Virus record (IMG/VR): IMGVR_UViG_3300009194_000004
Span: 62,001-126,000 of that record
Length of the DNA: 64,000 bases
Strand: one strand, 5' to 3'
From: an uncultured virus (IMG/VR IMGVR_UViG_3300009194_000004)
Taxonomy: Duplodnaviria > Heunggongvirae > Uroviricota > Caudoviricetes
The notes beneath the pieces were generated by a model. The model worked only from the letters and a program-made list of their open reading frames with translations, was not told the DNA's origin and ran no database searches. Made by a program: the position numbers and the translations under genes. Shown here one piece after another: positions 41,441 through 63,872 of the stretch (position 1 is the first letter of the stretch; every line of letters begins with the position of its first letter).

Positions 41441-41710
41441 TCATAAGATATGGCATTGTAAGGACCGACTATGCGGAAATACTGGCGGATCAATGATCCG
41501 CCAGAGATCAGTCAAAGTGAACATCGCCGTCATCAATTCTTCATGGATTCGGTAGAGTTCGGGTGTTCCCCAGTATTTTAGAGGAAGATTGTTTTTGTCG
41601 TTGAGTTTATTGGACACGAGCAGACACTCAGTCACGGCTTGTTCCAAGTCACACTCACTGCTTAGGTCGTGGATTTCAATGTGCGTAGGTCATAAGGCTT
41701 CTTTGCTCAT
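41441..41710 (-). pseudogene. Small ORF interrupted by one in-frame TGA (pseudogene or readthrough)
   Basis: ATG 41710 overlaps the upstream stop (ATGA) and has an AGGAG RBS; reads MSKEAL*PTHIEIHDLSSECDLEQAVTEC...; TGA at 41692-41690. Confidence 0.45.
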
Positions 41711-42126
41711 ATCTCTCCTAACTCCTCTTTACAATAGCCGATGATAACCGAGTACAGTACTGTTGCTTTGAAGGAAGTGGTCAGAACCGCCGGTATCAGA
41801 GTATCGTAGACGACCGCCGTTTCTTCGTTGTAAGGTGTGAAATGGTCGTCGTCGTGGAGTAGTTGCGGGTGAGATAAAACCGAATAAAAGTTATTGTCGT
41901 ATTGTTTTGAAATATAATCGGCGTAACAAATCGCCACGATGTAGCTCTTCGCCGGGAACTCCAACGCTTCGACGTCACCATTGATCATGTTCAACGCACT
42001 GACAATCACATTGGGGTTATACGATCCCCCAAAGTAATCGGTTTTATTGCCTTCCCGATGAAAGCGTCTAAGACGGTCTAGCCAACCACCATTCAATGAG
42101 TGATTTGTACCCACTGCATTCGCCAT
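41707..42126 (-). CDS. Hypothetical protein of the radical SAM island
   Basis: FPAKSYIVAICYA...LLHDDDHF.PY; overlaps the upstream rSAM gene; start uncertain. Confidence 0.75.
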   Translation of the reverse strand: MANAVGTNHSLNGGWLDRLRRFHREGNKTDYFGGSYNPNVIVSALNMINGDVEALEFPAKSYIVAICYADYISKQYDNNFYSVLSHPQLLHDDDHFTPYNEETAVVYDTLIPAVLTTSFKATVLYSVIIGYCKEELGEI

Positions 42127-42967
42127 CCAATCCTTCCTTTCGTCGATAGTGTTCTGTCAAACATGTACCCTTAAACTCACACGAGCGACACACATCCGAA
42201 AGCAGGGTGTGTTTTTCTTTTTGGGTCCATTCAAGGTACGCATTGAAATCCGGGAGTTCCAGGAAAAACTCCCGATCGGCGTCGTCGAACTCCAAGACCC
42301 CAAAATTGCCATTTGGAGTGATGTAGACATGGTCGTCCGAGAACGCGTTACGGACACCGTCAGCGACGTCGTTCAATAATGCTGTGTTACGTAGCTGGCT
42401 GTTTGGAAAACCCATTACCCAGCGTTTCACGTACTCTACAAAGGCATTGTTTGTATTACCTCGATCATTGGCCTGATTGGGACTGTAAGGTTTGATTTCC
42501 ACCGAGTTCAAGTTCGCTAACGACCGGATCAATTCGATTTGCTGATCGACGTCACCGGCCATCACTTCCGGCGTGGCCAAAACAATGACGTTTATCGGAC
42601 GTGAAAACACCAACATGTTTGTGAAAACTTGTTCATGGTGGGGCCGGTGGTCAAAGTCATACGAGACGTTGACGTCGATATCGTCGTCGTATAGCCATTC
42701 CGACATTTGGTAGAAATTGGTGGTTATGGAAATGGGACCATCGTAATATCGCCGAACGACCCCCTTTAGATCATGGACGTACGTCTGATCCAACAGGGTC
42801 ACTTCACCACCATAAATCTCAACGGCTTCAATTTCGGGGAGTTCCGAGAGACGATGGTCCAGGTGTGTCAAATCCAACACGCGTCGAGACCGGAGCTGGT
42901 CTTCGGTTAAATAACAGTTCGCACATCGGAAATTACATCGGTACAAAGGGTTTATCGATACGATCAT
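42068..42967 (-). CDS. Radical SAM enzyme with C-terminal Cys cluster
   Basis: CNFRCANC, YGGE, C-terminal CRSCEFKGTC...C. Confidence 0.9.
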   Translation of the reverse strand: MIVSINPLYRCNFRCANCYLTEDQLRSRRVLDLTHLDHRLSELPEIEAVEIYGGEVTLLDQTYVHDLKGVVRRYYDGPISITTNFYQMSEWLYDDDIDVNVSYDFDHRPHHEQVFTNMLVFSRPINVIVLATPEVMAGDVDQQIELIRSLANLNSVEIKPYSPNQANDRGNTNNAFVEYVKRWVMGFPNSQLRNTALLNDVADGVRNAFSDDHVYITPNGNFGVLEFDDADREFFLELPDFNAYLEWTQKEKHTLLSDVCRSCEFKGTCLTEHYRRKEGLDGECSGYKSLIEWWLARPS

Positions 42968-42989: not shown

Positions 42990-43580
42990 TTAGTAACCTG
43001 TGGGGTGACCAAAGAACAGATCGCATGCTATCGACATACGCATAACCCCAGGACTGGGTTTTACGTAGTGTCCCAGATAACTTGGGAACACGTAAACCGT
43101 ATCGGCTTCGGGCGTTATTTGGTAGTTGGCAAAGTGGTTTTTCGTTATGTCCCACTCATAACCACGACCGGCACAACCACGTGGGTCGACGAGAACCAGA
43201 TTCCCTGGATTGGGAATCAGATAGAAAACAGCACTCACTTGAGCCCCGTTATGCACGTGCAGATCAAGACCGTCATTATTCTGACTATAAATACACCACA
43301 TGCTGGTTCTATAGTCTTTGTCGTTCAGCGTAATGCCGAACTCTTCTTGAACGTAACGGAGCAATGCGGGTAGTATAACGTCGTCGTGCAGTTTGCTCAA
43401 CGTAGGCCGTTCGGCGGGGTCGTATAAGTCAACCCTACTACCATACGCATTGTTATTGCTGTCCTCGTTGATCCCCATGGAAAATATCTCGCCGATGGCG
43501 ACGTCTATATCCACATCGTGATCCTCGATGTGGTCTTTGTGGATCACGGTTTTCCAAGGTTCTATGCGCTCGTATGCCAT
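42990..43580 (-). CDS. 2OG-Fe(II) oxygenase (TIGR02466-like)
   Basis: HVH...SAVFYL...LVDPR...FPSYLGHYV...RMSIA. Confidence 0.85.
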   Translation of the reverse strand: MAYERIEPWKTVIHKDHIEDHDVDIDVAIGEIFSMGINEDSNNNAYGSRVDLYDPAERPTLSKLHDDVILPALLRYVQEEFGITLNDKDYRTSMWCIYSQNNDGLDLHVHNGAQVSAVFYLIPNPGNLVLVDPRGCAGRGYEWDITKNHFANYQITPEADTVYVFPSYLGHYVKPSPGVMRMSIACDLFFGHPTGY

Positions 43581-43589
43581 TGTCGTCCC

Positions 43590-44282
43590 CTATGGGTTTT
43601 TGAACGTGGGGTCGCCTGGAAGTAGGTACTGTTTTATTTTGATCACTTCCAACGTGGATGCATCAAACAGACAACCAAACGCCCGTTTCTTTCGTGTGGT
43701 ATCACCGTCATTCGGTGGCGCAACATTAAAAAAGGTACCTATTTCCTTCCCAGTCAGGTCGGTGTAAAAATAGATGTCCCGGAAACGAAGTAATCGTTCA
43801 TCGTTTAAATGTAAACCTACACCGAAATAGTCGATTGGTACACACCCAGGCGGTAGCCGTGGGTATTGATGTCGTGCGATGTTGAGGTCGTACACCTTTA
43901 ATGCTTTTTGTTGCGTCTCCAATTGTAGCTTTAACGTGTAGGACGTACCTTGAACAAAACCCTCGGGTAGCTCACAATCAAACAATGGGGCGACCTGAGC
44001 AACGTCACACCGACGGTACGATATCGAAATAGTGTCTTCGGGGTAGTTGGTATTGTTTTTGCGGGTAAGGCCGATCAACTCCCAATTCTTCAATTCCGGC
44101 CACGGACTGGCTAAGATTTCAGGACTGTGTTCGATAGCCATATTGAACAAGGGTAGTACCGGTTCTGATAACACGGGGAAGTTGGGACGGTAGGTATTCT
44201 CGGACAACCCATTGGAATCAAGGGTGATTTCCTTTGCAGTCGGGTCGACCCCATCGATGTTAGTCAAAGAAACATTAGACAT
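43590..44282 (-). CDS. Hypothetical protein of the radical SAM island
   Basis: 230-aa ORF overlapping the upstream rSAM stop. Confidence 0.75.
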   Translation of the reverse strand: MSNVSLTNIDGVDPTAKEITLDSNGLSENTYRPNFPVLSEPVLPLFNMAIEHSPEILASPWPELKNWELIGLTRKNNTNYPEDTISISYRRCDVAQVAPLFDCELPEGFVQGTSYTLKLQLETQQKALKVYDLNIARHQYPRLPPGCVPIDYFGVGLHLNDERLLRFRDIYFYTDLTGKEIGTFFNVAPPNDGDTTRKKRAFGCLFDASTLEVIKIKQYLLPGDPTFKNP

Positions 44283-45309
44283 TTCTTACCTCAATCAAAT
44301 CGACAATACCAACTTCACTAGCTTGATTCAGTTCCGCTTCCAACGCTTTCATCTTACTGCAATGTTCGTCAACCCGACAACTTTCCTGTGTATCCATGAT
44401 CGTTTTCCGACATCCGTTACACAAACTGAAGAGTGAACATCCCCAACAGTCGTCATGCATGGACAGGTATAACATCGAATCCTGAAGAGGTGTGGTGATT
44501 GCGTCACTGGCCATCTCATTTTCAAAATCAATCGGAAACATGTCATCGTCACCAAATGCACCACAACTGTAATACGACCCGTCGGGATGTAGGTTACGAA
44601 TTCCTTTATCGCAGTCACGACTTATGGGACATGTCGTCTTAAGTCCGCCCAAGGAACGTATGAACTGCTGTGTGTTGTATTCCCATGGAGTCAACCCCGC
44701 CTTATGTATTTCGAGGTATTTGGCGTAAATGTCCCCCATCAAATAAGAAATACTTTGACGCCCGCTGGCGAATGCCCAATTAAGCTTACACACTACGCCC
44801 ATTTTTTTGGCCAGTCTGACATTATCCAAGGCGCGTTGAACGTTACTCTCGTCTATCACTGAGATGAAATCTGGACGGTACCCGACCCGCTCTAAGAACA
44901 GGTCACTGACTGCCCAAAAGTCCTCTTCTAAAAACACCCGTGTACGAGTAATTAATCGACTGTCACCGTAATGGAAGGACGTCCCCACCCCGATTTGTGG
45001 GTGGCGAAACAGCTCAGTCCATTTGTCGGGCCGCTTATAAAAGTCCCACAAGTTGGTCGTGAAGCTGACAATGGTTTCGGTCATGCCGCGTTCTTCCAAC
45101 AGCTTGAGGATATCCCAATAATAGTCGGGCCTGAGCATCAACGGATCACCACCGTTAACAATGATCGTTTGGGTGTTCGGAAACCGATCCAGAAAGCGAG
45201 CAATATAGTCCAGATTGAGAACGTCTTTCTTATCGTCGGTTATGTTGGTGGAGCTGCAGAACGTGCAGGCGAAGTTACAAAGTTCCGTTGGTTTGATGAT
45301 CAGATCCAC
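44275..45309 (-). CDS. Radical SAM/SPASM enzyme
   Basis: IIKPTELCNFACTFC, GGDP, C.....C...PDG.YYSC, CWGCSLFSLCNGC; GTG start with AGGAG RBS. Confidence 0.9.
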   Translation of the reverse strand: MDLIIKPTELCNFACTFCSSTNITDDKKDVLNLDYIARFLDRFPNTQTIIVNGGDPLMLRPDYYWDILKLLEERGMTETIVSFTTNLWDFYKRPDKWTELFRHPQIGVGTSFHYGDSRLITRTRVFLEEDFWAVSDLFLERVGYRPDFISVIDESNVQRALDNVRLAKKMGVVCKLNWAFASGRQSISYLMGDIYAKYLEIHKAGLTPWEYNTQQFIRSLGGLKTTCPISRDCDKGIRNLHPDGSYYSCGAFGDDDMFPIDFENEMASDAITTPLQDSMLYLSMHDDCWGCSLFSLCNGCRKTIMDTQESCRVDEHCSKMKALEAELNQASEVGIVDLIEVRNV

Positions 45310-45374: not shown

Positions 45375-45416
45375 ACAGCATAAAACCACGGCCTCAGGTA
45401 CCGTGGTTTTATGTCA
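45375..45416. terminator. Terminator-like dispersed palindrome inside the rSAM island
   Basis: CATAAAACCACGG-cctcaggta-CCGTGGTTTTATG. Confidence 0.75.
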
Positions 45417-46397
45417 CCATTGGTTTACTTTGGCGATTGTTTCCTTCGGTAAAACACACTCGGTGATTCCATAATCTTCCATGATTGACAACACGCGATG
45501 GTCCAGACACGTCGGCAGAAACGGACACTCGCCACACTCTTTCGTTTTGGTGGTGTAAGCGTACTGTTCTAAGATGACGGCGTCGTACTTCTTACGATAG
45601 TCCTCTACCCCGTCAACCCGGTACCGGTCACGGATTTGTATCAAATCTTCGTAAACGATGGGGATGGCGTAAAACTCATTCTCATAAAAAATGATTACGC
45701 GTTCTAGTTTGTCGTGCGGACTCACCACATCGACGTGTTGGTCGACCATACAGCCGTCGTTAGTCGCCTGAGTGGTGACGGTCACAGATTTTAACCAGTT
45801 AAACGCGCGCCGGTACTGTTCTGGATCGTTACTGGTTCGAGCAAACGACAGATTAAAGTCCACACCTTGACCGTACTGTCTGAGGTAAAAGTTGTTCAAC
45901 GTTTCGTAGTTATCGACTACCAACGACTGACTCAAATTCAACTGTGGGTGCAGGTACAGGTTCGGGAACCGGGCTTTGACGTCCCGAACCTTCTCGGCAA
46001 TGACCGCATTGTAGCGTTCGTTCAGGTTCTTCGATTCCGGAATGACCACGTTGATCTGAAGTTCCTTCATACCAAGACGATCAAGGGCGTTCAATACCTG
46101 TAAGTCGGGTTTCACCATGGTGGAGTTGACAACCAGTCGATCAAACCTTTTGATTAATTCAGTCAACCGAATGTCATTCAGGATCTCCATCGTGTTGGTG
46201 GCGGTGAAGATATCGGTACTACCCAAAACGACCGCATATGGGTCGAGGTGTTCTAGGAACTCATAGGCCACGCGGTACATCTTATCCGTAGCTTTATTGG
46301 GGGAATCACGATCAACATGGCAACCCGCGCAATTGAATGCACAACCCGCTAAGATCTCCAACTGCAGTTCGAATGAGTTGAATTTTTCGATGTTCAC
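45414..46397 (-). CDS. Divergent radical SAM-fold protein
   Basis: CAFNCAGC and C-terminal CGECPFLPTC...C; the GGE motif appears replaced by LGST. Confidence 0.8.
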   Translation of the reverse strand: MNIEKFNSFELQLEILAGCAFNCAGCHVDRDSPNKATDKMYRVAYEFLEHLDPYAVVLGSTDIFTATNTMEILNDIRLTELIKRFDRLVVNSTMVKPDLQVLNALDRLGMKELQINVVIPESKNLNERYNAVIAEKVRDVKARFPNLYLHPQLNLSQSLVVDNYETLNNFYLRQYGQGVDFNLSFARTSNDPEQYRRAFNWLKSVTVTTQATNDGCMVDQHVDVVSPHDKLERVIIFYENEFYAIPIVYEDLIQIRDRYRVDGVEDYRKKYDAVILEQYAYTTKTKECGECPFLPTCLDHRVLSIMEDYGITECVLPKETIAKVNQW

Positions 46398-47398
46398 GAA
46401 ATCACTCCATAGAGTCGTTTAAACTCACAATGTTTGTTTGTGATGTTCACGTGGTCACTGTGTAGAAAACAACCCAACCCGCAACGCTGATAAAACTCAC
46501 AACTCAGGCACTCGCGTTCTTGAATGAACCGGACCTCGGACTCATGGATGTTGTCAACAACAGTCGGGTCCGATTTGAACTGGTCCCGATCGGCCAAAAT
46601 CCGACAAGAGCCCGTATGTCCTGTCGGAAGAATGATGAACGAACTCCGACAGGTCGCTGTGTTGTGGTGATTCTCACGAAACCCTTTGACTGGTTGACAT
46701 TCCGGATAGTGTTTATCCAACCACAGGAAAAAGTCAACCAGTTCAACATCACTGGGCTGTAAAATTTCAGCGTTATCTTCGGGTGAATAATAGTCAAAGA
46801 AAATCGGGTAGTCCTGGTAAAGTCGATCAAACACGACGTTGGAACCACGCATGAATCGTTCAATGTTAGGTCGGGTCAACACCACGGAAATGTTTGACAG
46901 CCAGGGTTTGAACTTGGCCAGGTTTTCCTCAAACAGTTTAAGCGTCTGAGAGTTAAACCGACCCGCAGCATCGTAAGACGTGCAAAAGGTGAACGGAATC
47001 AGCAGTTCTTCCAATGTCTTGATGAACCGCATCACCCGCTCGGCCTTCTCGAACACTAAGTTGGTCACGAAATTGATTTCACAGTGTTTAACTGATGTCA
47101 CTACCCGATGACAGAACTCTACATAGTCGTCGAATACTCGATCGGGGAGTTCGTCCATGAACAACTCCCCACCCATGACGTTCACACTGTAAAAATCGTG
47201 ATCGTTGGTGTTATTAATGACAACGCTTGCTTTCTCAACAATCTCATCAACACCAGTCCAGTCGCTGTGGTCCTGCCAACAAAACCCACAGCTAAGGTTG
47301 CAGCGCTCAAAGAAGTTGATGAAAAATTCTTTATTCTGTCCCCGCTTTGCTTCCACTATCTCCACCAGCGGTATCAGGTCCGGGTTGTTCGTGGCCAT
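46394..47398 (-). CDS. Radical SAM/SPASM enzyme
   Basis: CNLSCGFC, MGGE, C-terminal CLSCEFYQRCGLGC...C. Confidence 0.9.
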   Translation of the reverse strand: MATNNPDLIPLVEIVEAKRGQNKEFFINFFERCNLSCGFCWQDHSDWTGVDEIVEKASVVINNTNDHDFYSVNVMGGELFMDELPDRVFDDYVEFCHRVVTSVKHCEINFVTNLVFEKAERVMRFIKTLEELLIPFTFCTSYDAAGRFNSQTLKLFEENLAKFKPWLSNISVVLTRPNIERFMRGSNVVFDRLYQDYPIFFDYYSPEDNAEILQPSDVELVDFFLWLDKHYPECQPVKGFRENHHNTATCRSSFIILPTGHTGSCRILADRDQFKSDPTVVDNIHESEVRFIQERECLSCEFYQRCGLGCFLHSDHVNITNKHCEFKRLYGVIS

Positions 47399-48083
47399 TG
47401 AGTATCTCCAAAGCGTATTTGTTTAAAAGCAACCAGTTGGGGTTTTCTTTATCCCCAACGAAGAAGTGAAACAGGTTCTTTCCGTTGAACATGTATTCTT
47501 CAAACTGGACAGGGAAATAAAACTGCCGGTAGTCCACCGCATCTCGGATAGAGAAAAACAACTCGAAGAACGAAGGAATCTCAAACAGCCAGACAACGTT
47601 AACACCGATATATTTCGGGTCGTTAATAACACCGTCATATCCCCGGAGATCTGGGTCTTTGTCATCGTCTATTGCTTTGATGTAGTCACAGTACTTGACC
47701 ATCGAAGAGCAGAACAAGAAATACCGGGCCAGCAGGTCGGAGTGTTCTTCAACAAATTCATCTAAGAATCCATCTGGGGTTTCGAATGTAGCGATCCCAG
47801 AGGTGTCCCCCTCCATGAAATGGATCAGTACCAACAACACAAGAACGTTGAGTTCTTCACACTTAAAGAGTGTGTTGATTTCCATGTAAACACTGAGTAA
47901 TTCTGAGAGTTCTTCTTTTGACAACGTCTCCACGTTGATCCGTGTTTTGACGTTCAGGTTTGCCAGGTAAAACACAAAGGGTTTCCCCTTTATTTTCGAA
48001 TTACTGTAATCGACAGTATACACTTTGTCGTTTTCGGCAATGACGTTGTGTAGGTCACTGATGGGGAGTGGTACGGTAATCAT
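47331..48083 (-). CDS. Hypothetical protein of the radical SAM island
   Basis: 250 aa; GAGG RBS; 68-nt overlap with the next rSAM gene. Confidence 0.8.
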   Translation of the reverse strand: MITVPLPISDLHNVIAENDKVYTVDYSNSKIKGKPFVFYLANLNVKTRINVETLSKEELSELLSVYMEINTLFKCEELNVLVLLVLIHFMEGDTSGIATFETPDGFLDEFVEEHSDLLARYFLFCSSMVKYCDYIKAIDDDKDPDLRGYDGVINDPKYIGVNVVWLFEIPSFFELFFSIRDAVDYRQFYFPVQFEEYMFNGKNLFHFFVGDKENPNWLLLNKYALEILNGHEQPGPDTAGGDSGSKAGTE

Positions 48084-48093
48084 GACGTTTGCC

Positions 48094-49128
48094 TCATCCG
48101 TTCAGATTCATTTGTTTCAACACGTCTCGGTCTGCGTGGTACAAGTACCCGATGAAATTGTTATTCATGTTATCCCGAAATTCCGTGCGACCAAAAATTT
48201 GACTACAGTGGGTATTTATATCCATGTTGACCAGGTCTCTGGCTTTCGTTACCGTGAACGAACCCTCAGGAAGAACCCTGAGTAGGTGGTTCAGGAATGG
48301 ATCGGTGGTTCCATTCTTCGCATGGACTTTTTCGACAAGCTCACGTATTTCCTTGTGGTGCCTTTTAATAAACGCCACATTCCCTGGGTGGTTATCTGGA
48401 TTGAACAGCACTGTGTCCTCCAGTGCTTCGATCTGGTCGTCGATATCGTCCCGTTCCAAGTCAATATCAAACCCAAAGTTTTGCTTTAGGTTGTAGATCC
48501 CATATAACAAGTCACGTCGCACGCCCACGAAGTCCCATGCCACTGATTTCCAGAGGATTGTTTCCATGCGCTCTACGAACGCGGATACGTAGCGATCAGA
48601 TGGGTCAAAATCAACCAAGAGAACATGCGCCAGTAAGTATTCAAAACTGATACGCTCTTTCAGTTCGGCTGGGACGGGGCGCGGTTCTACTTCCTCATAC
48701 CAAGCCCTTACAGCATCCAGGGTGGGGATTGTGATGTTTCGAAAACCGTCTTTTCGCGAACCTTTGGTACTGGTGCGACTTCCATGCTCGTACTTGTGGT
48801 TCACCGCATTCAGTTTCAAGAATCGATGTACCATCTCCACACTTGCCAGTGGGAATAAGGATCGCAGCCAGACCACCAAAAAGTAATTCAGGGAACGCTC
48901 GTCTATTAAAATGGTGGTCTTTTGTCCGATAGGCGTCAGGCATTCAACAAATGTGAATAGGTCACCAAAGTCTCTCTCGATTGCGTCGACCGACACAAAC
49001 TGATACAATGGCCTAGGGCCATGCGTTACACGACACTGTCCAAGTGGTCCTACATAGACCAAGTTGTTGCGACCTACATTTCCAGTGAAATCGTAATCAA
49101 TATAAACCTTATCCAACAAATGTAACAT
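48094..49128 (-). CDS. Hypothetical protein, paralog C of a tandem triplet
   Basis: MLHLLDKVYIDYDF; ISFEYLLAH; ME.ILW; FGR...N..FIGYLY. Confidence 0.85.
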   Translation of the reverse strand: MLHLLDKVYIDYDFTGNVGRNNLVYVGPLGQCRVTHGPRPLYQFVSVDAIERDFGDLFTFVECLTPIGQKTTILIDERSLNYFLVVWLRSLFPLASVEMVHRFLKLNAVNHKYEHGSRTSTKGSRKDGFRNITIPTLDAVRAWYEEVEPRPVPAELKERISFEYLLAHVLLVDFDPSDRYVSAFVERMETILWKSVAWDFVGVRRDLLYGIYNLKQNFGFDIDLERDDIDDQIEALEDTVLFNPDNHPGNVAFIKRHHKEIRELVEKVHAKNGTTDPFLNHLLRVLPEGSFTVTKARDLVNMDINTHCSQIFGRTEFRDNMNNNFIGYLYHADRDVLKQMNLNG

Positions 49129-49150: not shown

Positions 49151-50188
49151 TCAGCCGTTCATTTTGAAATACTTCAAGGTCTCCGGCGTCAGATTGTAAA
49201 GATAATTAACAAAGACGCCGTTCGTGTCTTTGGTCATCTTCTCTCGACCAAAAAGAAAAGACCAGAGTGATTCTCTGTCGACAGCCACCAGTTCTTTCAG
49301 AACACTCCCGGTGAATGGTCGTTCCGGGTCTAAAAGGTCAAACAAGAAACGCCGATACTGGTCACCGTACCCAAGAAGCTCATCCACTTTATCCATCATC
49401 TTTCTGATGTACGCGTAATCCGCTTTGACGACATCCACGTCTTTATAGGTTATTGCCGGGTCGAAAAACCGCTTAACCTCAGGCTGATTAAGTTGGTACT
49501 CGATATCATTTCGATCAAAATTAATCGGCAGACCAAGTGTTTTCTTCAACCTAAACCCATTGTAGAAAGCCGCCATTCGACGCTTAACAAAATCCCTAGC
49601 GCAGGATATCCACAACATGTGTTCAATTTTCTTAGAAAGTTGATCTACATGCGGGTCAGCGTCGTCAAAATCCACACTTAAGGAGTGAGCCAAGAGTGTT
49701 TCATAGCTCAGGTGTTTTTTGAGTTCCGAACAATACCCACTACCATGTTTCGAACCCGCGTAAAAGCGTTTCGTGTCGTCCAGTGTTGGAGCCGGAAGCT
49801 GGTCAGCGTAATGATCGTAAGCAAACCCCCTAACTCGAACAAAACGATGGTGTATGTAGAAGGTCCTCAGGATTGCGTGGATGATTTCCACCGGCATCTC
49901 AGGATACACCGCTCGATAGTGGGTCACCACTAGCTGGTACATGTCGTCAATGTCCAACATTAACCACACGTCGCCTTCAGTAAGAATCAATGTTTCCATG
50001 AATGTAGGTAGGTCGCCAAAAGCATCCAACGCTTCTTCGAGGTTGGTGAATTCCATGAGTCCTTCGGGATGGAATTCATTTTGAGTATGCGTACGGTCGT
50101 CCAGATAAATGTACGAGTCGGTTGGTTGTTTCAGGTCAACGCTCGTAAATGCAAAGTCCGCCCGGACGTCATCAATTAAGTGCAGCAT
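49151..50188 (-). CDS. Hypothetical protein, paralog B of a tandem triplet
   Basis: MLHLIDDVRADFAF; LSYETLLAH; IEHMLW; FGR...FVNYLY; AAGGA RBS before ATG 50188. Confidence 0.85.
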   Translation of the reverse strand: MLHLIDDVRADFAFTSVDLKQPTDSYIYLDDRTHTQNEFHPEGLMEFTNLEEALDAFGDLPTFMETLILTEGDVWLMLDIDDMYQLVVTHYRAVYPEMPVEIIHAILRTFYIHHRFVRVRGFAYDHYADQLPAPTLDDTKRFYAGSKHGSGYCSELKKHLSYETLLAHSLSVDFDDADPHVDQLSKKIEHMLWISCARDFVKRRMAAFYNGFRLKKTLGLPINFDRNDIEYQLNQPEVKRFFDPAITYKDVDVVKADYAYIRKMMDKVDELLGYGDQYRRFLFDLLDPERPFTGSVLKELVAVDRESLWSFLFGREKMTKDTNGVFVNYLYNLTPETLKYFKMNG

Positions 50189-50190
50189 GG

Positions 50191-51240
50191 TTATGTTTCC
50201 TTTGTTGGGGACAGGACCATATCTGAAATCTTTACAGGCGTGACTGAATGCAGGTAACTGAATATAAGGGAGCCTGTTCCCCATAATGCATCGTCGATAC
50301 CGAAGAATGCACTCCACGGACGCTTCCGGTCGGCGTCAATCAGCTCGATGAATTCGTCGTGTGTGATCTCATGGTCCTTCAAGAAGAAGCTAACGGCGAG
50401 CTCCTTGAAGTCCTCTACAATGTTATTGCGTTTGTTGTTAACGCTAATAGCGTGGTGGATTTTCTGGGCGTTAGCTGCAGTTATCTCATTAAGTGATTCA
50501 TCAAACCCCAGCGCTTCATCCAGCTTTGAGATTTGTTCCTCGATGTCGTCCGCCAGCGGATCGATATCTAGGTCTAGGTTTTTCTTTAGACCGAAGATTC
50601 CTAATAACAGCCTACGGCGCCATGTGGTGTAGTCAGTCACCAACATTTGCCACAACAACGCTTCCATCCGTCGTCTAAAACAGATGACATAAGGATCTGA
50701 CTCAGAATAGTTACACGCATGTGCGTGAACCATAAGGTATTCAATAGAAACGTTCTCTTTTACCAAATCGGAGAACTCACCATTTACTCCCGCCTCTTCG
50801 TACCAAATGCGCGTCTGCATTGGTGTCGGGACTGTAAGTCCGAGTCTACCCTCACGATTAATGCTCGCGCGGGTGGAAAGGCGAATCTGGCTGTATTTTT
50901 GGTCGATCGTCACCATTCTCAAGAACCGATGTGTGTTCTCAAGCGTGATGTTTGGAAAAATACCACGCAAGAAATGAACGTAAAAACGGTTTAGATCTTG
51001 CTCGTCGATGAACGCCGTGACATCACGACCACTGTGAATAATGGATTCGATGAATCCATTTATACCACCAGGGGCGTCTATAAGCACATCAAGATTGGGG
51101 TACTTCATCAGCGGAGTTGCGTCTTGAGAAAAAGCCTTAGACCCGAGGGAGTTAATATAAACAATATCTTTCGGGTTGGCCCTAGCGTTCGGACTGGAAA
51201 ATGAGTAATCAAGCGACAGGCCGTTTGTCAACCGGATCAT
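50191..51240 (-). CDS. Hypothetical protein, paralog A of a tandem triplet
   Basis: MIRLTNGLSLDYSF; VSIEYLMVH; MEALLW; IFSYLH; ATGA-coupled to the putative precursor gene. Confidence 0.85.
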   Translation of the reverse strand: MIRLTNGLSLDYSFSSPNARANPKDIVYINSLGSKAFSQDATPLMKYPNLDVLIDAPGGINGFIESIIHSGRDVTAFIDEQDLNRFYVHFLRGIFPNITLENTHRFLRMVTIDQKYSQIRLSTRASINREGRLGLTVPTPMQTRIWYEEAGVNGEFSDLVKENVSIEYLMVHAHACNYSESDPYVICFRRRMEALLWQMLVTDYTTWRRRLLLGIFGLKKNLDLDIDPLADDIEEQISKLDEALGFDESLNEITAANAQKIHHAISVNNKRNNIVEDFKELAVSFFLKDHEITHDEFIELIDADRKRPWSAFFGIDDALWGTGSLIFSYLHSVTPVKISDMVLSPTKET

Positions 51241-51779
51241 CGTCTGCTCCTTGAACCGTGGCAGTTGCTGTGGCAGTTCGAATGACAGACTGACAGATCC
51301 ACGATCTCACCGTTGTGAATGCGTTCATATAACTCGTTCTGAACTGTTTGGATCAGGTCGGATAGATTTGACCGATCAGCATCGTTTCGAGTGGAAATGT
51401 AGGTCGGGTCACCACCGGCGGTTTTCAAGCTGTGTATGCTCTGGCGGTAATTATTGTTCAGTGCTGCAATACCCCACTCTTTATCGTGATCGCCGTTTGT
51501 GTAATTACTGCCAGAATAATGACGCGCGGTGTAAACCTTGCGCATTGAAGTACAACGTTCCGCTTCGGCTTTGATCACGTCAACAACGTTACTTGCATCG
51601 ACATCTCCGGTGTTTGCATCAGTACCCCTATCAAAATGAGACAGTTCCACCAGCGGACTTTGGTCCATGTACTTGTCGTCCCGGGCAGAACCCTTCCACC
51701 ATTTCGCTTGGTCCTTGGCGTACTGGTTGATGTTGTTATTGACAGCCGCGTGAAAATCACTCCGTTTTAAATCAGCCAT
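51237..51779 (-). CDS. Putative substrate/precursor protein with C-terminal CHSNCHSNCHGSRSRR
   Basis: 180 aa; starts 2 nt after the first rSAM/SPASM stop; repetitive Cys/His C-terminal core. The CDS is solid; the substrate role is inferred. Confidence 0.75.
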   Translation of the reverse strand: MADLKRSDFHAAVNNNINQYAKDQAKWWKGSARDDKYMDQSPLVELSHFDRGTDANTGDVDASNVVDVIKAEAERCTSMRKVYTARHYSGSNYTNGDHDKEWGIAALNNNYRQSIHSLKTAGGDPTYISTRNDADRSNLSDLIQTVQNELYERIHNGEIVDLSVCHSNCHSNCHGSRSRR

Positions 51780-51780
51780 G

Positions 51781-52917
51781 TTAGAATACCTCTACAACTG
51801 GGATCGTTTTTGTATCCGAAGTCAGCGCGGACGGCTCTTTCTCATACCGAATGCCTTCCTCACCCATGAACCCATTGAGTACTTCCTTCAGGATGTCCTG
51901 ATCGGTGTTTTTCATGGACCGCATCATGGACTTTGGAGAAGCACAGATATCGCCCTGCCAATTAAGTTGATGACAATCGCCATTACAAACGTCAAATACG
52001 TCACAACTGAAACAGACTTCGTTCAGGGTGCTTTCGGTTGCAATGTTACATCCACGTCCTTCCGAGAACACGATATCTGAAATGGTTTGATCCAAGGTTC
52101 CGAACGTCGTCTCAGGGGCGCCATTGGGACACCCGCCAATGGTACCATCGGCGTTCAGGGTTAGAATCTTCTGTTCGCATTCCCGACTACGGCACCCGGA
52201 AAACGTATTGAATACAGTGCTGGTCAGCAGGCTTTCTAGGAACATGTTCAAGATCTTTTCGTACGCCTTGTGTTCCAACGTCTGTTCCCACATTTTCAAG
52301 AACCACGCGTCCAACTCCAGATTGGTAGGAAAAATACCGGTGTTCTCACGGGCGTTACCATTCTCAGTGATGCGTTCAAAGTTGATGAACGCAACCCCAA
52401 GGTTGGTCATCTTGTTGATCAAGTCGATTGGCTCAACATCCATCAGGTCTTTGGACACGCAAATCATGACCGTGACGTCTATGCCTTCGGCCACTAACTT
52501 ACGGACGTTTTCTTCCCACAGCGCTTCTTGGTTGCGGTTCCCTTGCCAACGGATGCTGTAATCCCAGGATGTCCCGATTGAAGTTCCTGCCACTTTCTTC
52601 AGAAACGCCAGTCGGTCATCTGTCAGCTTATACGTCAGGTTGGTTTGAATACCCCATGTCAAGTTATCCCAGAGTCCATCCAGCTCATCGTAAACCTTTT
52701 CCATTTTGTCCAGCGGGCAGAGCATCGGCTCGCCACCATGGAACGAGATGTTGGCGGAACGGAAGGTGGGGAACTGAGCTTTCAGTCGGTGAAAGAAGTC
52801 AATGGTGGCATCCGGGTCAAACCAACCCTTCTTCCCGTTGGTACCACTTGTGAAACAGTGCTGGCAGTTTAACTGGCAAGTTTCGGTAGTTTTCAGGTAG
52901 ACCATTAAATCACGCAT
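51781..52917 (-). CDS. Radical SAM/SPASM peptide-maturase-like enzyme
   Basis: YLKTTETCQLNCQHC, FHGGEP, CRSREC...ADGTIGGCPN, CFSCDVFDVCNGDC...C; GAGG RBS before ATG 52917. Confidence 0.9.
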   Translation of the reverse strand: MRDLMVYLKTTETCQLNCQHCFTSGTNGKKGWFDPDATIDFFHRLKAQFPTFRSANISFHGGEPMLCPLDKMEKVYDELDGLWDNLTWGIQTNLTYKLTDDRLAFLKKVAGTSIGTSWDYSIRWQGNRNQEALWEENVRKLVAEGIDVTVMICVSKDLMDVEPIDLINKMTNLGVAFINFERITENGNARENTGIFPTNLELDAWFLKMWEQTLEHKAYEKILNMFLESLLTSTVFNTFSGCRSRECEQKILTLNADGTIGGCPNGAPETTFGTLDQTISDIVFSEGRGCNIATESTLNEVCFSCDVFDVCNGDCHQLNWQGDICASPKSMMRSMKNTDQDILKEVLNGFMGEEGIRYEKEPSALTSDTKTIPVVEVF

Positions 52918-52993
52918 GGTACGTCCTCGTTTATTTCTAATGAATGTCGCTACTGTACAATCATGACCATAAGTAAAAAAAGCAGCAGTGGGC

Positions 52994-53923
52994 TTACACC
53001 CACTGTGCCGGCCAAACGACCTTCCAACCACCGTTGACGTAGGCTTGCAGTTGATTGTTACGGACCCGCAGACTGGTCTCGTCTGTAGAACCAATTCGCA
53101 CGTAACGCCCGTCGTGGTGATTCACGTTCGGGTTAGCGTGGGTGGCAAGTGCGACACCCACGGCGTGTGGTGACATGTACCGGGTTTTGGTGGACATGTC
53201 CGCCGCCTGGGTATCCGTGGCCATTTTGTAGTTTTCGACGTCCCCCAGTCCCACCTGGGCCTTAGTAACCTTGTGTGGGTTGGTGCCGTCTTCCATGTGG
53301 TCGACCAAGCGGTTCTCGACTCGGTTTCGATCTTCGGCTGCTTCTTCAAACAACATCAACGCGTAGGCACGCGTTTCATCGTGAAGTGCTTGGTCACCAG
53401 CCATGATCGCCTGAACAATCCGTTCCAGTTCGGTGACAACCGGCTCAAACCCATACAGTTCCCACAAGGCGTGCAGGTGGCCAGCCGCTGGGTACTCGTT
53501 AGGCTTGCCGATGATGTTGGCCCACTCCACGGGCCGATCTTCTTCAGCCAGTGTGTCGATCACCTGCTGGAGTGCGTCGGTTGAAACTGCAAAGTCTCCA
53601 CCCACTACCTGGTAATCCAGGAACACACTGGTCGAAACATTGGGGTTAACAACGATGATCGCCCCACAGACTTCCAGACCGCTTCGGGTCGTGGCCCGTT
53701 CGTACAGGTAAGTGGCGATATAATCATCGCCCTTACGAAGCTCTGCACCTGACACATCCCGGAGGACCATGTCGCGGGTGTAGAACCCGCCGTAATTGGG
53801 AACCAAGACCCGGTAGTTACCGGTGGTCACGGCGGCGTCCAGATCGTGTCGCTCGCCCAGGATGCGGTTATCCGGATTCCGGCCCGTCAAATCCAACGGG
53901 TATTTGTTAACAATGAGTGACAT
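52994..53923 (-). CDS. Virion structural protein (short paralog of 53940..55586)
   Basis: YPLDLTGRNPDNRI.GE; one H..NPHKVTKAQVGL..VEN fibre repeat. Confidence 0.75.
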   Translation of the reverse strand: MSLIVNKYPLDLTGRNPDNRILGERHDLDAAVTTGNYRVLVPNYGGFYTRDMVLRDVSGAELRKGDDYIATYLYERATTRSGLEVCGAIIVVNPNVSTSVFLDYQVVGGDFAVSTDALQQVIDTLAEEDRPVEWANIIGKPNEYPAAGHLHALWELYGFEPVVTELERIVQAIMAGDQALHDETRAYALMLFEEAAEDRNRVENRLVDHMEDGTNPHKVTKAQVGLGDVENYKMATDTQAADMSTKTRYMSPHAVGVALATHANPNVNHHDGRYVRIGSTDETSLRVRNNQLQAYVNGGWKVVWPAQWV

Positions 53924-53939: not shown

Positions 53940-55586
53940 TTAGGCTTCAAGTTGGGCGGACGCGTCATCGAATGCCGCAATCAGGGTGTCCGTGACGTCT
54001 TGGGCACCGGCACCGACGGTGGGAATCGGTGTCCGACCACTTCCACGGGTTGGGTAGTACAGACCAGGATCGGGCAGGAACTGACCTGTCGGTTGACGCA
54101 CTGGGATGAATGTAATTCCTTCAGCGGGAACGTTGGTCACATCCAGTGACAGTTCCATGACCCGCTCAGCGCCGGTACCGGTGATACCCAACATGAAATC
54201 CCGCATGGGCGGGATGCCGTTCAGTGTGGTTATGTTTACCGTTTCGTTTGTCCAGTCGGCTTCAATACTAACCCACGCTTTACGTCCATCGGGTCCTGGT
54301 ACGCTACCAAGCATGTGAAGGGGTTCGTCGGTTTCACTGAGGTGATAAAACGGCAGATGTTCATCGCGTCCGAAACTGTCTCCAGAGGTGAAGTCCCAGG
54401 TATACGTTGCGAAATACACAAATTGCGTGTACATGTCGTCCTTGATGTCACCATACGTCATGTTCTCCAGCATTTGGGAGTTAGCAGCCGTGCCCAACAG
54501 GATGTCCTGTTTCAACCCTTCGAGGGTCATCCCAAATGTCCGGTCGGTGTCGTAAGCGGTACCATCGACCCGGAGGTAATTCTGCAAGATACCGTTGATG
54601 GTATCCATGCTGATTGCGCCGATATCCGCAGCGGTAATTCCGTGGGGGTTATTGGTGTCACTGAAATGCGGTTCCAGAACCTCGTCCTTGAGGGCTTGGA
54701 TGACCACCTCTACCAGATACGGGGTCATGTACCGGTCGTTACGGGTCCCGTCATACGCTTCGCCCGGTGTGGCGATTCCGAAGTTCTGTACTAGCGAAAG
54801 ACCTACGTCGGCTTTATCAGTACCGTGGGGGTTGTCGGCGTTCAGGTGTTCGTCAATTTCCCGTTGTACAGCTGCCCCTACAGCAACGTCCGTCGACTTC
54901 GGTGACATATAACGGTCACTGCGGAGTCCTTCGGCTGCCTCGGTCTCGTTGGCCATCGGGAAGTTTTGTACGTACTCCAGCCCCACCTGTTTCTTGGTGA
55001 CCATGTGAGGGTTGTCCCGACTGTTCATGTGGTCGGTTACAGTCCCCGCTTCCGTATCACCCAGTGCACGATTGATATCACCGATGGCTTCAACCACTTC
55101 TTCGAAACCGATCAGTTCACCGGTGCCCTGATCGTGTGGGATCGGTGGGAACAACGCCGGGAGTGTGTCAATCTGACTCCATGCGCGAGTCAATGGGTTG
55201 ACAGCTTTATTCGACAGCTCTTCCAATACGGCTTGATCTGAGAAGCCCCAGTGACCCCCGATGGTTTGGTAGGTCATGGACACAATACCACCGATATCGC
55301 GACTCAGGAAGCGCAGAGAACCTGCCAGAGCCTTACCGGTGTTGTTGGAGCCTTCGGGGAAATAGTGACCAAAGAGAAAGTCACGTCCTTCCTTATACAG
55401 ACGACCAGTTGCTTGGTCACGGATCTCAAACGACTCCACGTAAAACGGAGCCGCCTGAGGGATGATGAAATAATAGTCATCCCGGCCAGGGACCTGCAGG
55501 GTCTGCAACTCCCCATCGATTTTGTTTGCCGGGTTGGTACCGTACGGGTCGAACTCGTACAGTCCCGTGGTGTTTACAGTAGCCAT
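53940..55586 (-). CDS. Virion structural / tail-fibre-associated protein
   Basis: YEFDPYGTNPANKI.GE; three H...NPH...VGL/IG repeats; AAGGAG RBS. Confidence 0.75.
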   Translation of the reverse strand: MATVNTTGLYEFDPYGTNPANKIDGELQTLQVPGRDDYYFIIPQAAPFYVESFEIRDQATGRLYKEGRDFLFGHYFPEGSNNTGKALAGSLRFLSRDIGGIVSMTYQTIGGHWGFSDQAVLEELSNKAVNPLTRAWSQIDTLPALFPPIPHDQGTGELIGFEEVVEAIGDINRALGDTEAGTVTDHMNSRDNPHMVTKKQVGLEYVQNFPMANETEAAEGLRSDRYMSPKSTDVAVGAAVQREIDEHLNADNPHGTDKADVGLSLVQNFGIATPGEAYDGTRNDRYMTPYLVEVVIQALKDEVLEPHFSDTNNPHGITAADIGAISMDTINGILQNYLRVDGTAYDTDRTFGMTLEGLKQDILLGTAANSQMLENMTYGDIKDDMYTQFVYFATYTWDFTSGDSFGRDEHLPFYHLSETDEPLHMLGSVPGPDGRKAWVSIEADWTNETVNITTLNGIPPMRDFMLGITGTGAERVMELSLDVTNVPAEGITFIPVRQPTGQFLPDPGLYYPTRGSGRTPIPTVGAGAQDVTDTLIAAFDDASAQLEA

Positions 55587-61616: not shown

Positions 61617-63872
61617 TTAGGCGGTTTCACCTTTTTCTTTTTCTTTTTCTTCTTTTACTGCATGCTGTTTGTGGGTTTTGATGAAATACTCCAAAGTTGA
61701 AGCGTACGCTTTTGCTGTGGAAGCAACGTAAGCATGGAAATCACCTGTCGGTTTGACGAAGTTTCGGACGAGTTCGTTGAGGGTACGAACCGGAAGGTTG
61801 GTTCCGGCGCCGACCAACAGCTCGCCAATAGAAGACGGACTCTTGCCGTTATTTTCATCCCTGACGATCTTGAACGTAACGTCGACCTTATCCGAAGACA
61901 TCTTTCTACGGATCTGCTCGTACTTGTCTTGAGCGTTTTTCGAGTCCTCAAGAACCTTGACAAGAGTTTCCATGGATTTAAGCATACCCTTGATTTCATC
62001 CATGGATGGCAGGTCAACCGCGTCCATTTCCGGATTTGTACCTGTATTTACAGGCACGAAATCGAAGTATGAGAACTTACTCAACGACGGGTTATTATTC
62101 CCCTTCACGAACGATTCGATACGCGTCTGGGGTTGTACCCACAAGACCAGCGCACGATCCCCTGGAAGGAGTGAGGAGCGTTTGATGCCCTCATAGCCCT
62201 TAACATGGTCGGGCAGATCCGATGCCTTTACATCCGTAGACCCAGGCAGTGGTTTAATGTGTTTCTGCGGGAGCATGAACAGTTCCCGAGCCGTCAGGTC
62301 CATAGTGGCTTTCAGGTCCTTTGACTTTGAGAAGTCGGTCGACATGATGTCGATGCCTTCTTTTATCATGCTCTCGTATTGGCGTGGGTATTGATTGAAC
62401 ATGTAATTAGACACGTCAATCATTGCCTTAATGGTCTCTGGTTTTGTGGGTCCGAATACCCCGGAAACCATCAAACGTTTACCGCCTTTAACATTTACCT
62501 TCTTACTGCCAGCTCCGGACTCAATGGACTCAACTTCTTTCTTAAGCTGATCCAGTTTCTTCTTGGTACCGGCGACGTCATCGTTGAATTTACCCCAAAT
62601 GTGCCGGAGTAGTTCAAACAGTTTTTCCATCGCCTTCTTGCCGGCAGCGATGGTGGCTTTGAAGCCCGACTGGACGCTTTCCAGAGACACCTGGGTTGCG
62701 TACTGACGCGAGCTGGTCTGACCGAACGCTTCATTGGAGGGAATCAGCTGATCGCCACTGAACGACTCGTCCATATGCTCAAGACCAATGCGGATGGACT
62801 CGGCGGTAATGGAATCAATACCATCGCCACGTTCCAGAGCTTTGGTGAGAAGTGAATGGTAGGCTTCCAGAGACTCGCTCACTTTATCAAAATGGGCACC
62901 GTCTTGAGCGACCTGGTTCATGTCCTCGACCATCTTCTCTTCCGGTGAGGTAATGCCCACATCCAGGGACTCGTCTTCTTCGGCGCTGACGGAAACATCA
63001 CCCTCGCCTTCACCGCTGGCTTCTTCGGTACCCTTGGTGTCGGCCGACACGTCTTCTTCCGGCTTGGGAACGTCGTGTTGCGGACCTTCTTTTACTCCAC
63101 CGGTAGTTTCGGCTTCGCCGGATTCGGTTTCTTCGGACACTGTCACCGGCTGATGTTCAACATCACCGTTTACTTCGGCGTCACCGGCGGTTTCTTCTTC
63201 CGGATCACCGGCTTCGGACTCCACGTCGTCAGCTTCAGAGACCGATTCTTCTTCGGCTTGGGCTTCAGCTTCCGCAGGAGCTTCTTCAGCGGGTCCTTCT
63301 TCGACCACCGGTGTCTTACCGGCTTCTTCCTCTTCACCGCCTTCTTCGGCGTCAGAGGCGGGTTCTTCGCCAGACTGCTCGTCCACTTCTTCTTTTACAG
63401 CTTCGGCATCGTCGGAAGAGGCTTCTTCTTCCTGCTCGCCATCATCAGAAGCTTCTTCCTCGCCAGCTTCCTCTTCTTCCTCACCGGCTTCGGATTCTTC
63501 GCCGTCTTCTTCCTCGTCCTTTTCTTCAGACTCTTCGTCTTTCTCGTCGGAGTCATCGTCGGAGGACTCTTCCTCTTCCTCACGCTCCTCTTCTTCGTCC
63601 TTTTCCTCTTCCTCCTCTTCTTCCTTGCTGTCCTCGGAGGAAACAGTCACTTTCTGGTGACCTTGGTCTTTGGTCGTATGTTTCGGAGCGTCGTCGGACG
63701 CCGCGTCGAGCTCCGCTACCGCCGGCTTGGCTGTATCCGCATCACCGCTCTGTTCATTGCTGGCGTCAGAGAAATCGTCTTTCGGGGTTTCGCCGTCCTG
63801 AACAACAACCTTCTGATCTTCGTTGTTGTCTTCGTTACTGGACGTCAGCCATTGCTTGATAAATCGAGACAT
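61617..63872 (-). CDS. Internal head protein with long acidic propeptide (phiKZ gp93/gp162-like)
   Basis: About 300 aa E/D-rich N-terminal region, multiple S-x-E sites (PSNEAF, VSLES), LLPGDR motif; GAGGAG RBS. Confidence 0.7.
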   Translation of the reverse strand: MSRFIKQWLTSSNEDNNEDQKVVVQDGETPKDDFSDASNEQSGDADTAKPAVAELDAASDDAPKHTTKDQGHQKVTVSSEDSKEEEEEEEKDEEEEREEEEESSDDDSDEKDEESEEKDEEEDGEESEAGEEEEEAGEEEASDDGEQEEEASSDDAEAVKEEVDEQSGEEPASDAEEGGEEEEAGKTPVVEEGPAEEAPAEAEAQAEEESVSEADDVESEAGDPEEETAGDAEVNGDVEHQPVTVSEETESGEAETTGGVKEGPQHDVPKPEEDVSADTKGTEEASGEGEGDVSVSAEEDESLDVGITSPEEKMVEDMNQVAQDGAHFDKVSESLEAYHSLLTKALERGDGIDSITAESIRIGLEHMDESFSGDQLIPSNEAFGQTSSRQYATQVSLESVQSGFKATIAAGKKAMEKLFELLRHIWGKFNDDVAGTKKKLDQLKKEVESIESGAGSKKVNVKGGKRLMVSGVFGPTKPETIKAMIDVSNYMFNQYPRQYESMIKEGIDIMSTDFSKSKDLKATMDLTARELFMLPQKHIKPLPGSTDVKASDLPDHVKGYEGIKRSSLLPGDRALVLWVQPQTRIESFVKGNNNPSLSKFSYFDFVPVNTGTNPEMDAVDLPSMDEIKGMLKSMETLVKVLEDSKNAQDKYEQIRRKMSSDKVDVTFKIVRDENNGKSPSSIGELLVGAGTNLPVRTLNELVRNFVKPTGDFHAYVASTAKAYASTLEYFIKTHKQHAVKEEKEKEKGETA

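Follow-up and report, generated by a model that had tools for sequence, protein, structure and literature searches.

The 180-amino acid protein encoded at positions 51237..51779 (minus strand) of the window, i.e. the whole 64,000-nucleotide stretch of uncultured-virus DNA analysed here, ends in a Cys-His-rich tail. It is likely that this tail belongs to a fibre-associated particle protein and is (putatively) cross-linked by the enzymes of the gene cassette in which it is encoded. The cassette enzymes would very probably act on the tail protein, and we strongly expect the window phage's own tail protein to be present in the particle. For a tip or adhesion role of the protein the chances are about even.

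The tail gene starts with ATG, and its 20.3 kDa product has the C-terminus CHSNCHSNCHGSRSRR, the final residues being ...VCHSNCHSNCHGSRSRR. The tail, V164-R180 (51240..51290, minus strand), consists of three C-H-x-S/N repeats followed by R-x-R-R and is the presumed modification site. Cys residues are found at positions 76, 165, 169 and 173, and the 4-residue periodic C-terminal repeat containing three of the four Cys, as noted in the preliminary description, was confirmed as C165, C169 and C173, with C76 as the fourth. The gene had also been described as starting 2 nt after the stop of a radical SAM (rSAM)/SPASM gene. The adjacency is correct, whereas the spacing is 1 nt: rSAM1 (52917-51781) ends in TAA, followed by one base and the ATG, and the figure of 2 is the difference between the coordinates. 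GAGG is present upstream of the ATG, and the stop of the tail gene overlaps the start of the next gene, g3, as ATGA. A six-frame search of the window gives a single CH..CH..CH, and 100 codon shuffles give none, whereas plain C...C...C is not rare (7 occurrences compared to a shuffle mean of 3.45). Compared to a 74 % identical homolog (L003), the body has 63 synonymous and 40 non-synonymous codon differences, and the tail 5 and 4, respectively, with all C, H and R of the tail unchanged.

A search with an 11-row profile gave a Cys-His-tailed family of 454 clusters, counted at 50 % identity. The ending CHxxCHxxCHxxRxRR was present in 144 of the 160 family proteins examined, the remaining 16 being mostly variants or truncated and one spurious; the conservation of the tail in homologs, on which the preliminary description had made its case depend, was thus observed. 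C and H are the invariant residues of the tail. In 323 distinct tails, which are kin and partly chosen by the pattern itself so that the counts are non-independent, the second residue after His (X3) is Ser or Asn at 910 of 969 positions. Asp is rare there (7 of 969) and Gly absent (0 of 969), whereas the first residue after His (X2) is Gly at 170 positions. The exact letters HSN, HSN and HGS given earlier are not kept in homologs; what is kept is C-H-x-[S/N], and His-Xaa-Ser/Asn stands as the relevant motif, conserved across these tails. Ser or Asn and not Gly at X3 is what a cross-link to the β-carbon, from His or Cys, would require. The preference could alternatively be structural (turn capping) and not chemical. 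Of the putative cross-link types, His-to-Cβ is somewhat ahead of a thioether.

Some tails break the three-repeat pattern and keep the RxRR end (L242:10294-10623, L243:10508-11170 and L046:9665-11039), and others are expanded or internally repeated, with 6-16 Cys (L042, L209, L038/L079 and L069). The long family members have 453 (P0104) and 434 (L069) amino acids, P0104 carrying a glycine-rich N-terminal extension before the body and tail; longer fused forms were not found among 8000 candidates of 411-2000 amino acids, which is weak evidence. There is also a tandem class, in which two short tail genes (about 127-140 amino acids) are followed by several divergent rSAM3-type genes (L047, L072, L080, L121, L124 and others). 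A tandem-pair class lacking rSAM genes was rejected as an artefact of the strict regular expression, since profile searches showed divergent rSAM genes alongside; rSAM1 is present elsewhere on four of five tandem-pair contigs.

The AlphaFold2 model (144 alignment rows) has a confident body (pLDDT 86, pTM 0.81) with helices at residues 6-24, 62-76 and 136-155 and a hairpin at 79-107, and a flexible tail, residues 171-180 being a loose end with a score of 56. According to this model the tail protein is a folded protein, not a leader with a core, which agrees with the earlier suggestion that the long N-terminal part could be a folded domain. Pfam and NCBIfam gave no matches at E 0.1, and the sole family-library match was phrog_35144, which has no assigned function. 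A PDB sequence search with the 144-row profile found nothing below E 0.4, and Foldseek found no solved structure at E≤0.001. The best VIA row was a designed helical protein (Z 5.6, rmsd 4.7, 126 residues aligned), which is no clear match, and the BFVD matches were uncharacterised phage proteins only. Portal-like matches in the ESM Atlas were set aside, their scores being under 0.85.

The tail gene is part of a cassette of thirteen co-oriented genes (minus strand), in the order rSAM1, tail gene, g3-g5, g6, rSAM2-4, g10, oxygenase, rSAM5 and g13. The first of these, rSAM1 (51781..52917, 378 amino acids), is a radical SAM/SPASM protein: it exceeds the PF04055 cut-off (30.7 bits compared to 29.5), is just under that of TIGR04085 (26.5 compared to 27), and its CxxxCxxC motif (C14/C18/C21) and seven C-terminal, auxiliary-cluster Cys are invariant in 72 rows. 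The genes g3 (50191..51240, function unassigned), g4 (49151..50188, start at the second Met inferred) and g5 (48094..49128, weak match to phrog_36207) encode paralogs (mutual blastp E 1e-30 to 1e-47), and an ESM Atlas search with g5 returned nothing. The near-universal partner g6 (47331..48083, phrog_20767) is predicted to be folded (pLDDT 90). Its fold search gave no clear solved match, and the top VIA row, the rSAM enzyme ChlB, was too weak for use (Z 3.6). The g6 protein would be a candidate substrate-presenting protein and a likely helper. Family-library matches identify rSAM2 (46394..47398) and rSAM5 (42068..42967) and, together with profile matches, rSAM3 (45414..46397), which is of a divergent, often multi-copy type; rSAM4 (44275..45309) matches PF04055 with 38.6 bits and has a SPASM-like C-terminus. 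The remaining genes encode the accessory protein g10 (43590..44282, function unassigned), a 2OG-Fe(II) oxygenase (42990..43580; PF13759, 47.7 bits) and the small conserved last protein g13 (41707..42126, phrog_20737). The number of enzymes, five for only three repeats, points to additional substrates or steps.

Some bacterial cassettes contain B12-binding rSAM genes (L188:11845-13686, L217:5138-6865) or weak GT8 glycosyltransferase matches (L201:1774-3312, L219:12063-13583), gene content hinting at methylation or glycosylation. Dihydrofolate-reductase-like genes occur in the cassette of RSL2/RSF1, and genes for GIY-YIG or HNH nucleases were seen where the cassette starts (L001:19476-20625; L173:4427-5344; L104:4943-5470).

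None of the five enzymes reaches any cut-off of the NCBIfam maturase models. The 3-CyFE maturase models were missed (score/cut-off: FxsB 37.6/370, YhhB 34.2/445, AmcB 33/425, XyeB 20.3/450, GrrM 21.3/310), as were the HXS enzyme models (HxsB 26.2/370, HxsC at best 26.9/267.9) and the CXXX-repeat model TIGR04115 (23.6/350). The tail protein itself had no NCBIfam match, and no HxsA-type domain was found in it with NCBIfam or Pfam. The features of a PapB-type ranthipeptide were likewise not found: PapB scored 34.9/340, the residue four after Cys is Cys, and X3 is Asp at only 7 of 969 positions. By these cut-offs the system lies outside the triceptide, HXS and CXXX-repeat families, and the assignment of the maturases to known triceptide or ranthi/sactipeptide types, considered in the preliminary description, is not supported, nor is one to HXS or CXXX types.

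By analogy, the closest working likeness of the tail-protein system appears to be with HXS and CrpA/CrpC. According to the parts of the paper available, HXS (HxsA/B/C/D; PMC13128918) is an anti-phage system with a protein-sized substrate containing His-x-Ser repeats, more than one rSAM enzyme and a small partner protein. Such repeats in a protein substrate are also present here, whereas the present cassette is phage-encoded, has five enzymes and an oxygenase, and has a tail-protein homolog in virions. A Cys precedes each HxS, the repeats are C-terminal, there is no recognisable HxsA-type domain, and the HxsB and HxsC cut-offs are missed by more than 240 bits. Triceptides are defined by a cross-link to the β-carbon in an aromatic-X2-X3 motif (PMC11499958, available part). 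The tail has this motif, with a β-carbon at X3 (0 Gly and 910 Ser/Asn of 969), and shares with the His-type triceptides HaaB, YhhB and HtkB (same source) the adjacent SPASM enzyme; it differs in its folded 160-amino acid body in place of a leader, its interleaved Cys, the absence of any 3-CyFE score above cut-off and the putative status of the cross-link. Cys at every fourth residue beside a SPASM enzyme is shared with the CXXX-repeat system TIGR04114/TIGR04115, and a protein substrate with the CrpA/CrpC protein thioether system, as described in the available part of PMC13692751. Compared to these, the tail (C165, C169, C173) has just three repeats, an invariant His and RxRR, and TIGR04115 scores 23.6 against 350.

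Two scans of viral contigs gave at least 96 loci distinct by tail sequence, the second scan with flanks for 80 of 123 stretches. Among the matches listed, 93 of these distinct viral loci had an rSAM-family gene at a distance of up to 1.5 kb, and all 96 had one within 3 kb, so that the rSAM neighbours which the preliminary description proposed to look for are there. Gene order is conserved across the viral loci, and rSAM1 is located at most 150 bp from the tail gene in 72 of 90, again among the matches listed. In the 78 loci with at least 7.5 kb downstream, the cassette partners found among the matches listed were g6 (77 loci), rSAM2 (73), rSAM4 (67), rSAM5 (60), g13 (45), the oxygenase (42), rSAM3 (34) and g10 (11). 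When rSAM1 was used as the starting point, the tail gene was present in 15 of 15 cultured-phage records with an rSAM1 ortholog (E<1e-15) and in six of seven loci retrieved by an rSAM1 query; the remaining one stops less than 500 bp past the enzyme.

Upstream of the cassette the window encodes a virion structural or tail protein (52994..53923, minus strand; phrog_2163, E 1e-96) and a second tail protein, its paralog (53940..55586, minus strand; phrog_13857). In a survey of 42 loci, hand-picked for diversity and counted without a matched control, a tail or virion PHROG was found just upstream of the cassette in 35; five had none and two had no submitted gene. The survey covered 71 proteins, i.e. 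70 of 113 upstream ORFs (long ones cut to 600 amino acids, most cupin-sized ORFs left out) and gp176 of phage Atu_ph07. In T4-like loci the upstream gene ends in a Peptidase_G2 self-cleaving chaperone, PF11962 being matched in five of five, three of them over the cut-off. An intrinsic-terminator-like hairpin with a T-run (52986..53005, minus strand), a consensus match only, lies between the virion genes and the cassette, with the same hairpin in L003; it may set the cassette apart from the upstream virion genes, which would count against a link to the fibre module. TATG is a late-promoter motif, and the idea of such a promoter was rejected, the motif being absent at the corresponding place in L003. 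The window matches a viral contig of 231.8 kb (L002). Further neighbours in the window encode SbcC, a dUTPase and a baseplate spike, and the neighbour gene order is as in Ralstonia phage RSL2 and Pseudomonas phage DT01; we therefore infer a phiKZ-like jumbo phage. A 751-amino acid protein encoded at 61617-63872 (plus strand) has a long, very acidic N-terminal half and may resemble the internal head proteins of phiKZ from which a propeptide is removed.

Evidence for presence in particles comes from the T4-like phage Atu_ph07, in which a tail-protein homolog, AUZ94952.1 (296 amino acids; Foldseek E 5e-4, body-only HMM E 3e-9), sits within the same cassette. Its computed mass of 31.89 kDa is that of gp170 in the published virion list (PMC6102473, Table S5, available in part), and two genes upstream of it (66.07 and 21.66 kDa) correspond to gp176 and gp177 of that table, with the intervening gene count in agreement. 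In this proteome gp170 was detected with 8 peptides, 35 % coverage, in bands 1-9 with the peak in band 1, the gel top (PMC6102473). Among the 34 virion proteins of 25-40 kDa with at least three peptides in the table, gp170 alone peaks in bands 1-3. This further supports the idea of a virion domain raised in the preliminary description, the particle evidence being one distant homolog and published data mapped by mass. The list as available has no entries for gp 144-169 or 171-175, and therefore the cassette enzymes are outside it. The particles were PEG-purified, and the list also has RecA-like, ssDNA-binding and ribonucleotide reductase proteins, normally deemed non-structural (PMC6102473). 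The only Cys residues of gp170 are the three tail Cys. Its position in band 1 could result from disulfides or SDS-resistant oligomers; the loading buffer as printed (PMC6102473) lists no reductant. In the same table, gp176 (L170:6821-8644), a 66-kDa fibre with a G2-like chaperone, peaks in the band of ~52 kDa, which would fit a shed chaperone.

The cassette is not confined to phages. The DNA pattern of the tail was found in 47 stretches of GTDB genomes, comprising 38 credible genes, 8 stretches without such an ORF and one 32-amino acid ORF. Genomes titled Bdellovibrionota hold 27 of the 38, three of them on contigs of more than 1 Mb, and several of the other 11 are presumably misbinned phage contigs. 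A body-only HMM matched 27 of 28 GTDB-derived tail ORFs and no reversed controls, with the reservation that the profile may itself contain such proteins. The Bdellovibrionota loci carry the whole cassette, next to genes for 320-430-amino acid proteins that combine a prepilin-like N-terminus with a Peptidase_S74 chaperone, for a 200-amino acid partner and for a small twin-arginine protein. Fusions of this prepilin-like N-terminus to Peptidase_S74 were seen in L185, L191, L194, L196, L201, L211 and L236-L244. Of 301 genomes sampled evenly from the phylum, 11 had a strong g6 match, and 8 of these 11 have prepilin-like/S74 genes within the cassette or next to it; the set overlaps with the 27 loci above, and the two are non-independent. 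In five genomes checked there were 1-4 S74 matches per genome, and all eight S74 frames of 334-413 amino acids were located at the cassette. The 200-amino acid partner occurred in 15 of the 301 genomes, 10 of them among the 11 g6-positive ones (hypergeometric 2e-14, ignoring kinship and the origin of the query from one of these genomes). Its comparison with the phage G2-chaperone domain gave an hhalign probability of 30 %.

The other five partner-positive genomes, which look closely related to each other, are those with a second cassette type (L247-L251, in G204, G068, G282, G253 and G105), in which 7-8 rSAM genes occupy the same slot after the partner and twin-arginine genes. A Cys-rich protein of 170-190 amino acids with 12 Cys is encoded there in four of the five. 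In a quick tree of rSAM1 (73 rows), the rSAM1 of the window falls in a supported group of 14 which includes 8 Bdellovibrionota rows. The tree forces at least three label changes, and the direction of transfer is left unclaimed.

It is possible, if unlikely, that the tail stays unmodified and serves as a metal- or disulfide-binding tip with three Cys and three His, and that the enzymes make a small molecule or modify another target, e.g. the neighbouring fibre. The invariance of C and H is in line with this, and free thiols would explain why gp170, with only its three tail Cys, runs high without a listed reductant. The complete absence of Gly and 94 % Ser/Asn at a non-ligand position are not predicted by such a tip, nor is rSAM1 abutting the tail gene in 72 of 90 loci (among the matches listed) whatever the upstream fibre type. 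The modified tail protein might instead have its role in DNA delivery or in counter-defence, as a phage counterpart of HxsA with DNA-binding basic His-x-Ser repeats. The HxS repeats of HxsA are rSAM-modified (+8 Da) and matured HxsA binds DNA, according to the available part of PMC13128918, and the tail is HxS-rich with an RxRR end. This reading is nevertheless improbable: no HxsA-type domain was found (NCBIfam, Pfam), the phage cassette is beside fibre genes and the predator cassette beside prepilin/S74 genes, and predators inject no genome.

Marginally less probable again is a classical RiPP, with the body as a long leader and the cross-linked tail released as a free peptide (toxin, signal or metallophore). 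A flexible C-terminal core, a basic end and a gene right behind a SPASM enzyme would all fit, whereas the body is a conserved fold, and the 35 % virion coverage of gp170 must be mostly body because the tail is 17 of its 296 residues. In addition, searches of family libraries recognised neither a protease nor a transporter in the cassette. The preliminary description's 'precursor with core', in the classical RiPP sense, is therefore not retained: the protein has a folded body that is still present in the virion homolog, and its phage cassette has no recognised protease or exporter. The CX3CH motifs, which CHxxCH contains, might alternatively be atypical haem-c attachment sites; the enzymes would then make or attach a tetrapyrrole, and there are weak matches to NirJ/AhbD models (about 20-23 bits). 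We regard this as very improbable, as neighbouring motifs have a Cys in common, a signal peptide is not visible, and the haem-pathway models remain hundreds of bits under cut-off.

The preferred explanation is thus that the product of the tail gene would be a structural particle protein, tied to the distal tail-fibre module, with the C-terminal (C-H-x-S/N)3-RxRR tail as the substrate of the five radical SAM enzymes, the oxygenase and g6. Cross-linking of the tail by the enzymes would most likely take place in the cytoplasm of the infected cell and join His or Cys to the β-carbon of Ser/Asn, perhaps with further oxidation. The matured protein would then be added to the fibre, and its variable body and rigid tail may serve host contact there. 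Predatory Bdellovibrionota would use the same cassette beside pilin-like fibre proteins, and the tail protein probably forms part of a prey-contact fibre in chemically modified form. Maturation of whole proteins by rSAM enzymes has precedents in HxsA (PMC13128918) and CrpA (PMC13692751), as far as described in the available parts of these papers. The chemistry itself may be a known type of cross-link, the novelty lying in the proposed system.

Multi-rSAM phage clusters have been noted without function in Campylobacter phages CP220/CPt10 (PMC2853527), Aeromonas phage 332-Vera (PMC12390700), where the genes are within a structural cluster, and Burkholderia phage S13 (PMC11898562); the CP220 cluster was read as boosting host metabolism (PMC2853527), and the passages available name no substrate in any of the three papers. 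S13 carries the tail-gene cassette. CP220 and 332-Vera were not among the rSAM1 matches. A literature search covering few subscription papers returned, for an rSAM-matured phage virion protein, only passing notes of phage rSAM clusters in the passages available (PMC12390700, PMC11898562, PMC2853527, PMC5332604, PMC5468394). The MAT fibres of Bdellovibrio (PMC10769870) share the S74 tail-fibre chaperone with the predator cassette neighbours; they have about 1000 amino acids and a signal peptide, compared to the 320-430 amino acids and prepilin-like N-terminus of the latter. The words 'pilin' and 'radical SAM' are both absent from the text of PMC10769870, and 'radical' from that of PMC7824862.

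In a wider and more tentative view, to which we give slightly less than even chances, an interchangeable cassette is common to large phages (phiKZ-like and T4-like) and predatory Bdellovibrionota, has been exchanged between them, and uses radical chemistry for the covalent maturation of the tip protein of prey-contact fibres. The Cys-His tail would be cross-linked, which possibly locks the protein into an SDS-resistant assembly, predators would display the product together with an S74 fibre anchored by a pilin, and the second cassette type, with its other Cys-rich substrate, would occupy the same slot. Multi-rSAM clusters of giant phages have been deemed unusual since 2010 with no substrate named, and the tail protein is a candidate for this substrate. 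Atu_ph07, as far as its published proteome is available, provides a cultured phage whose particles contain a homolog, gp170, making the question testable. If true, the finding would add a class of virion post-translational chemistry, with two protein folds that have no PDB-search match and five uncharacterised rSAM subfamilies, and would connect phage adsorption with bacterial predation at the molecular level.
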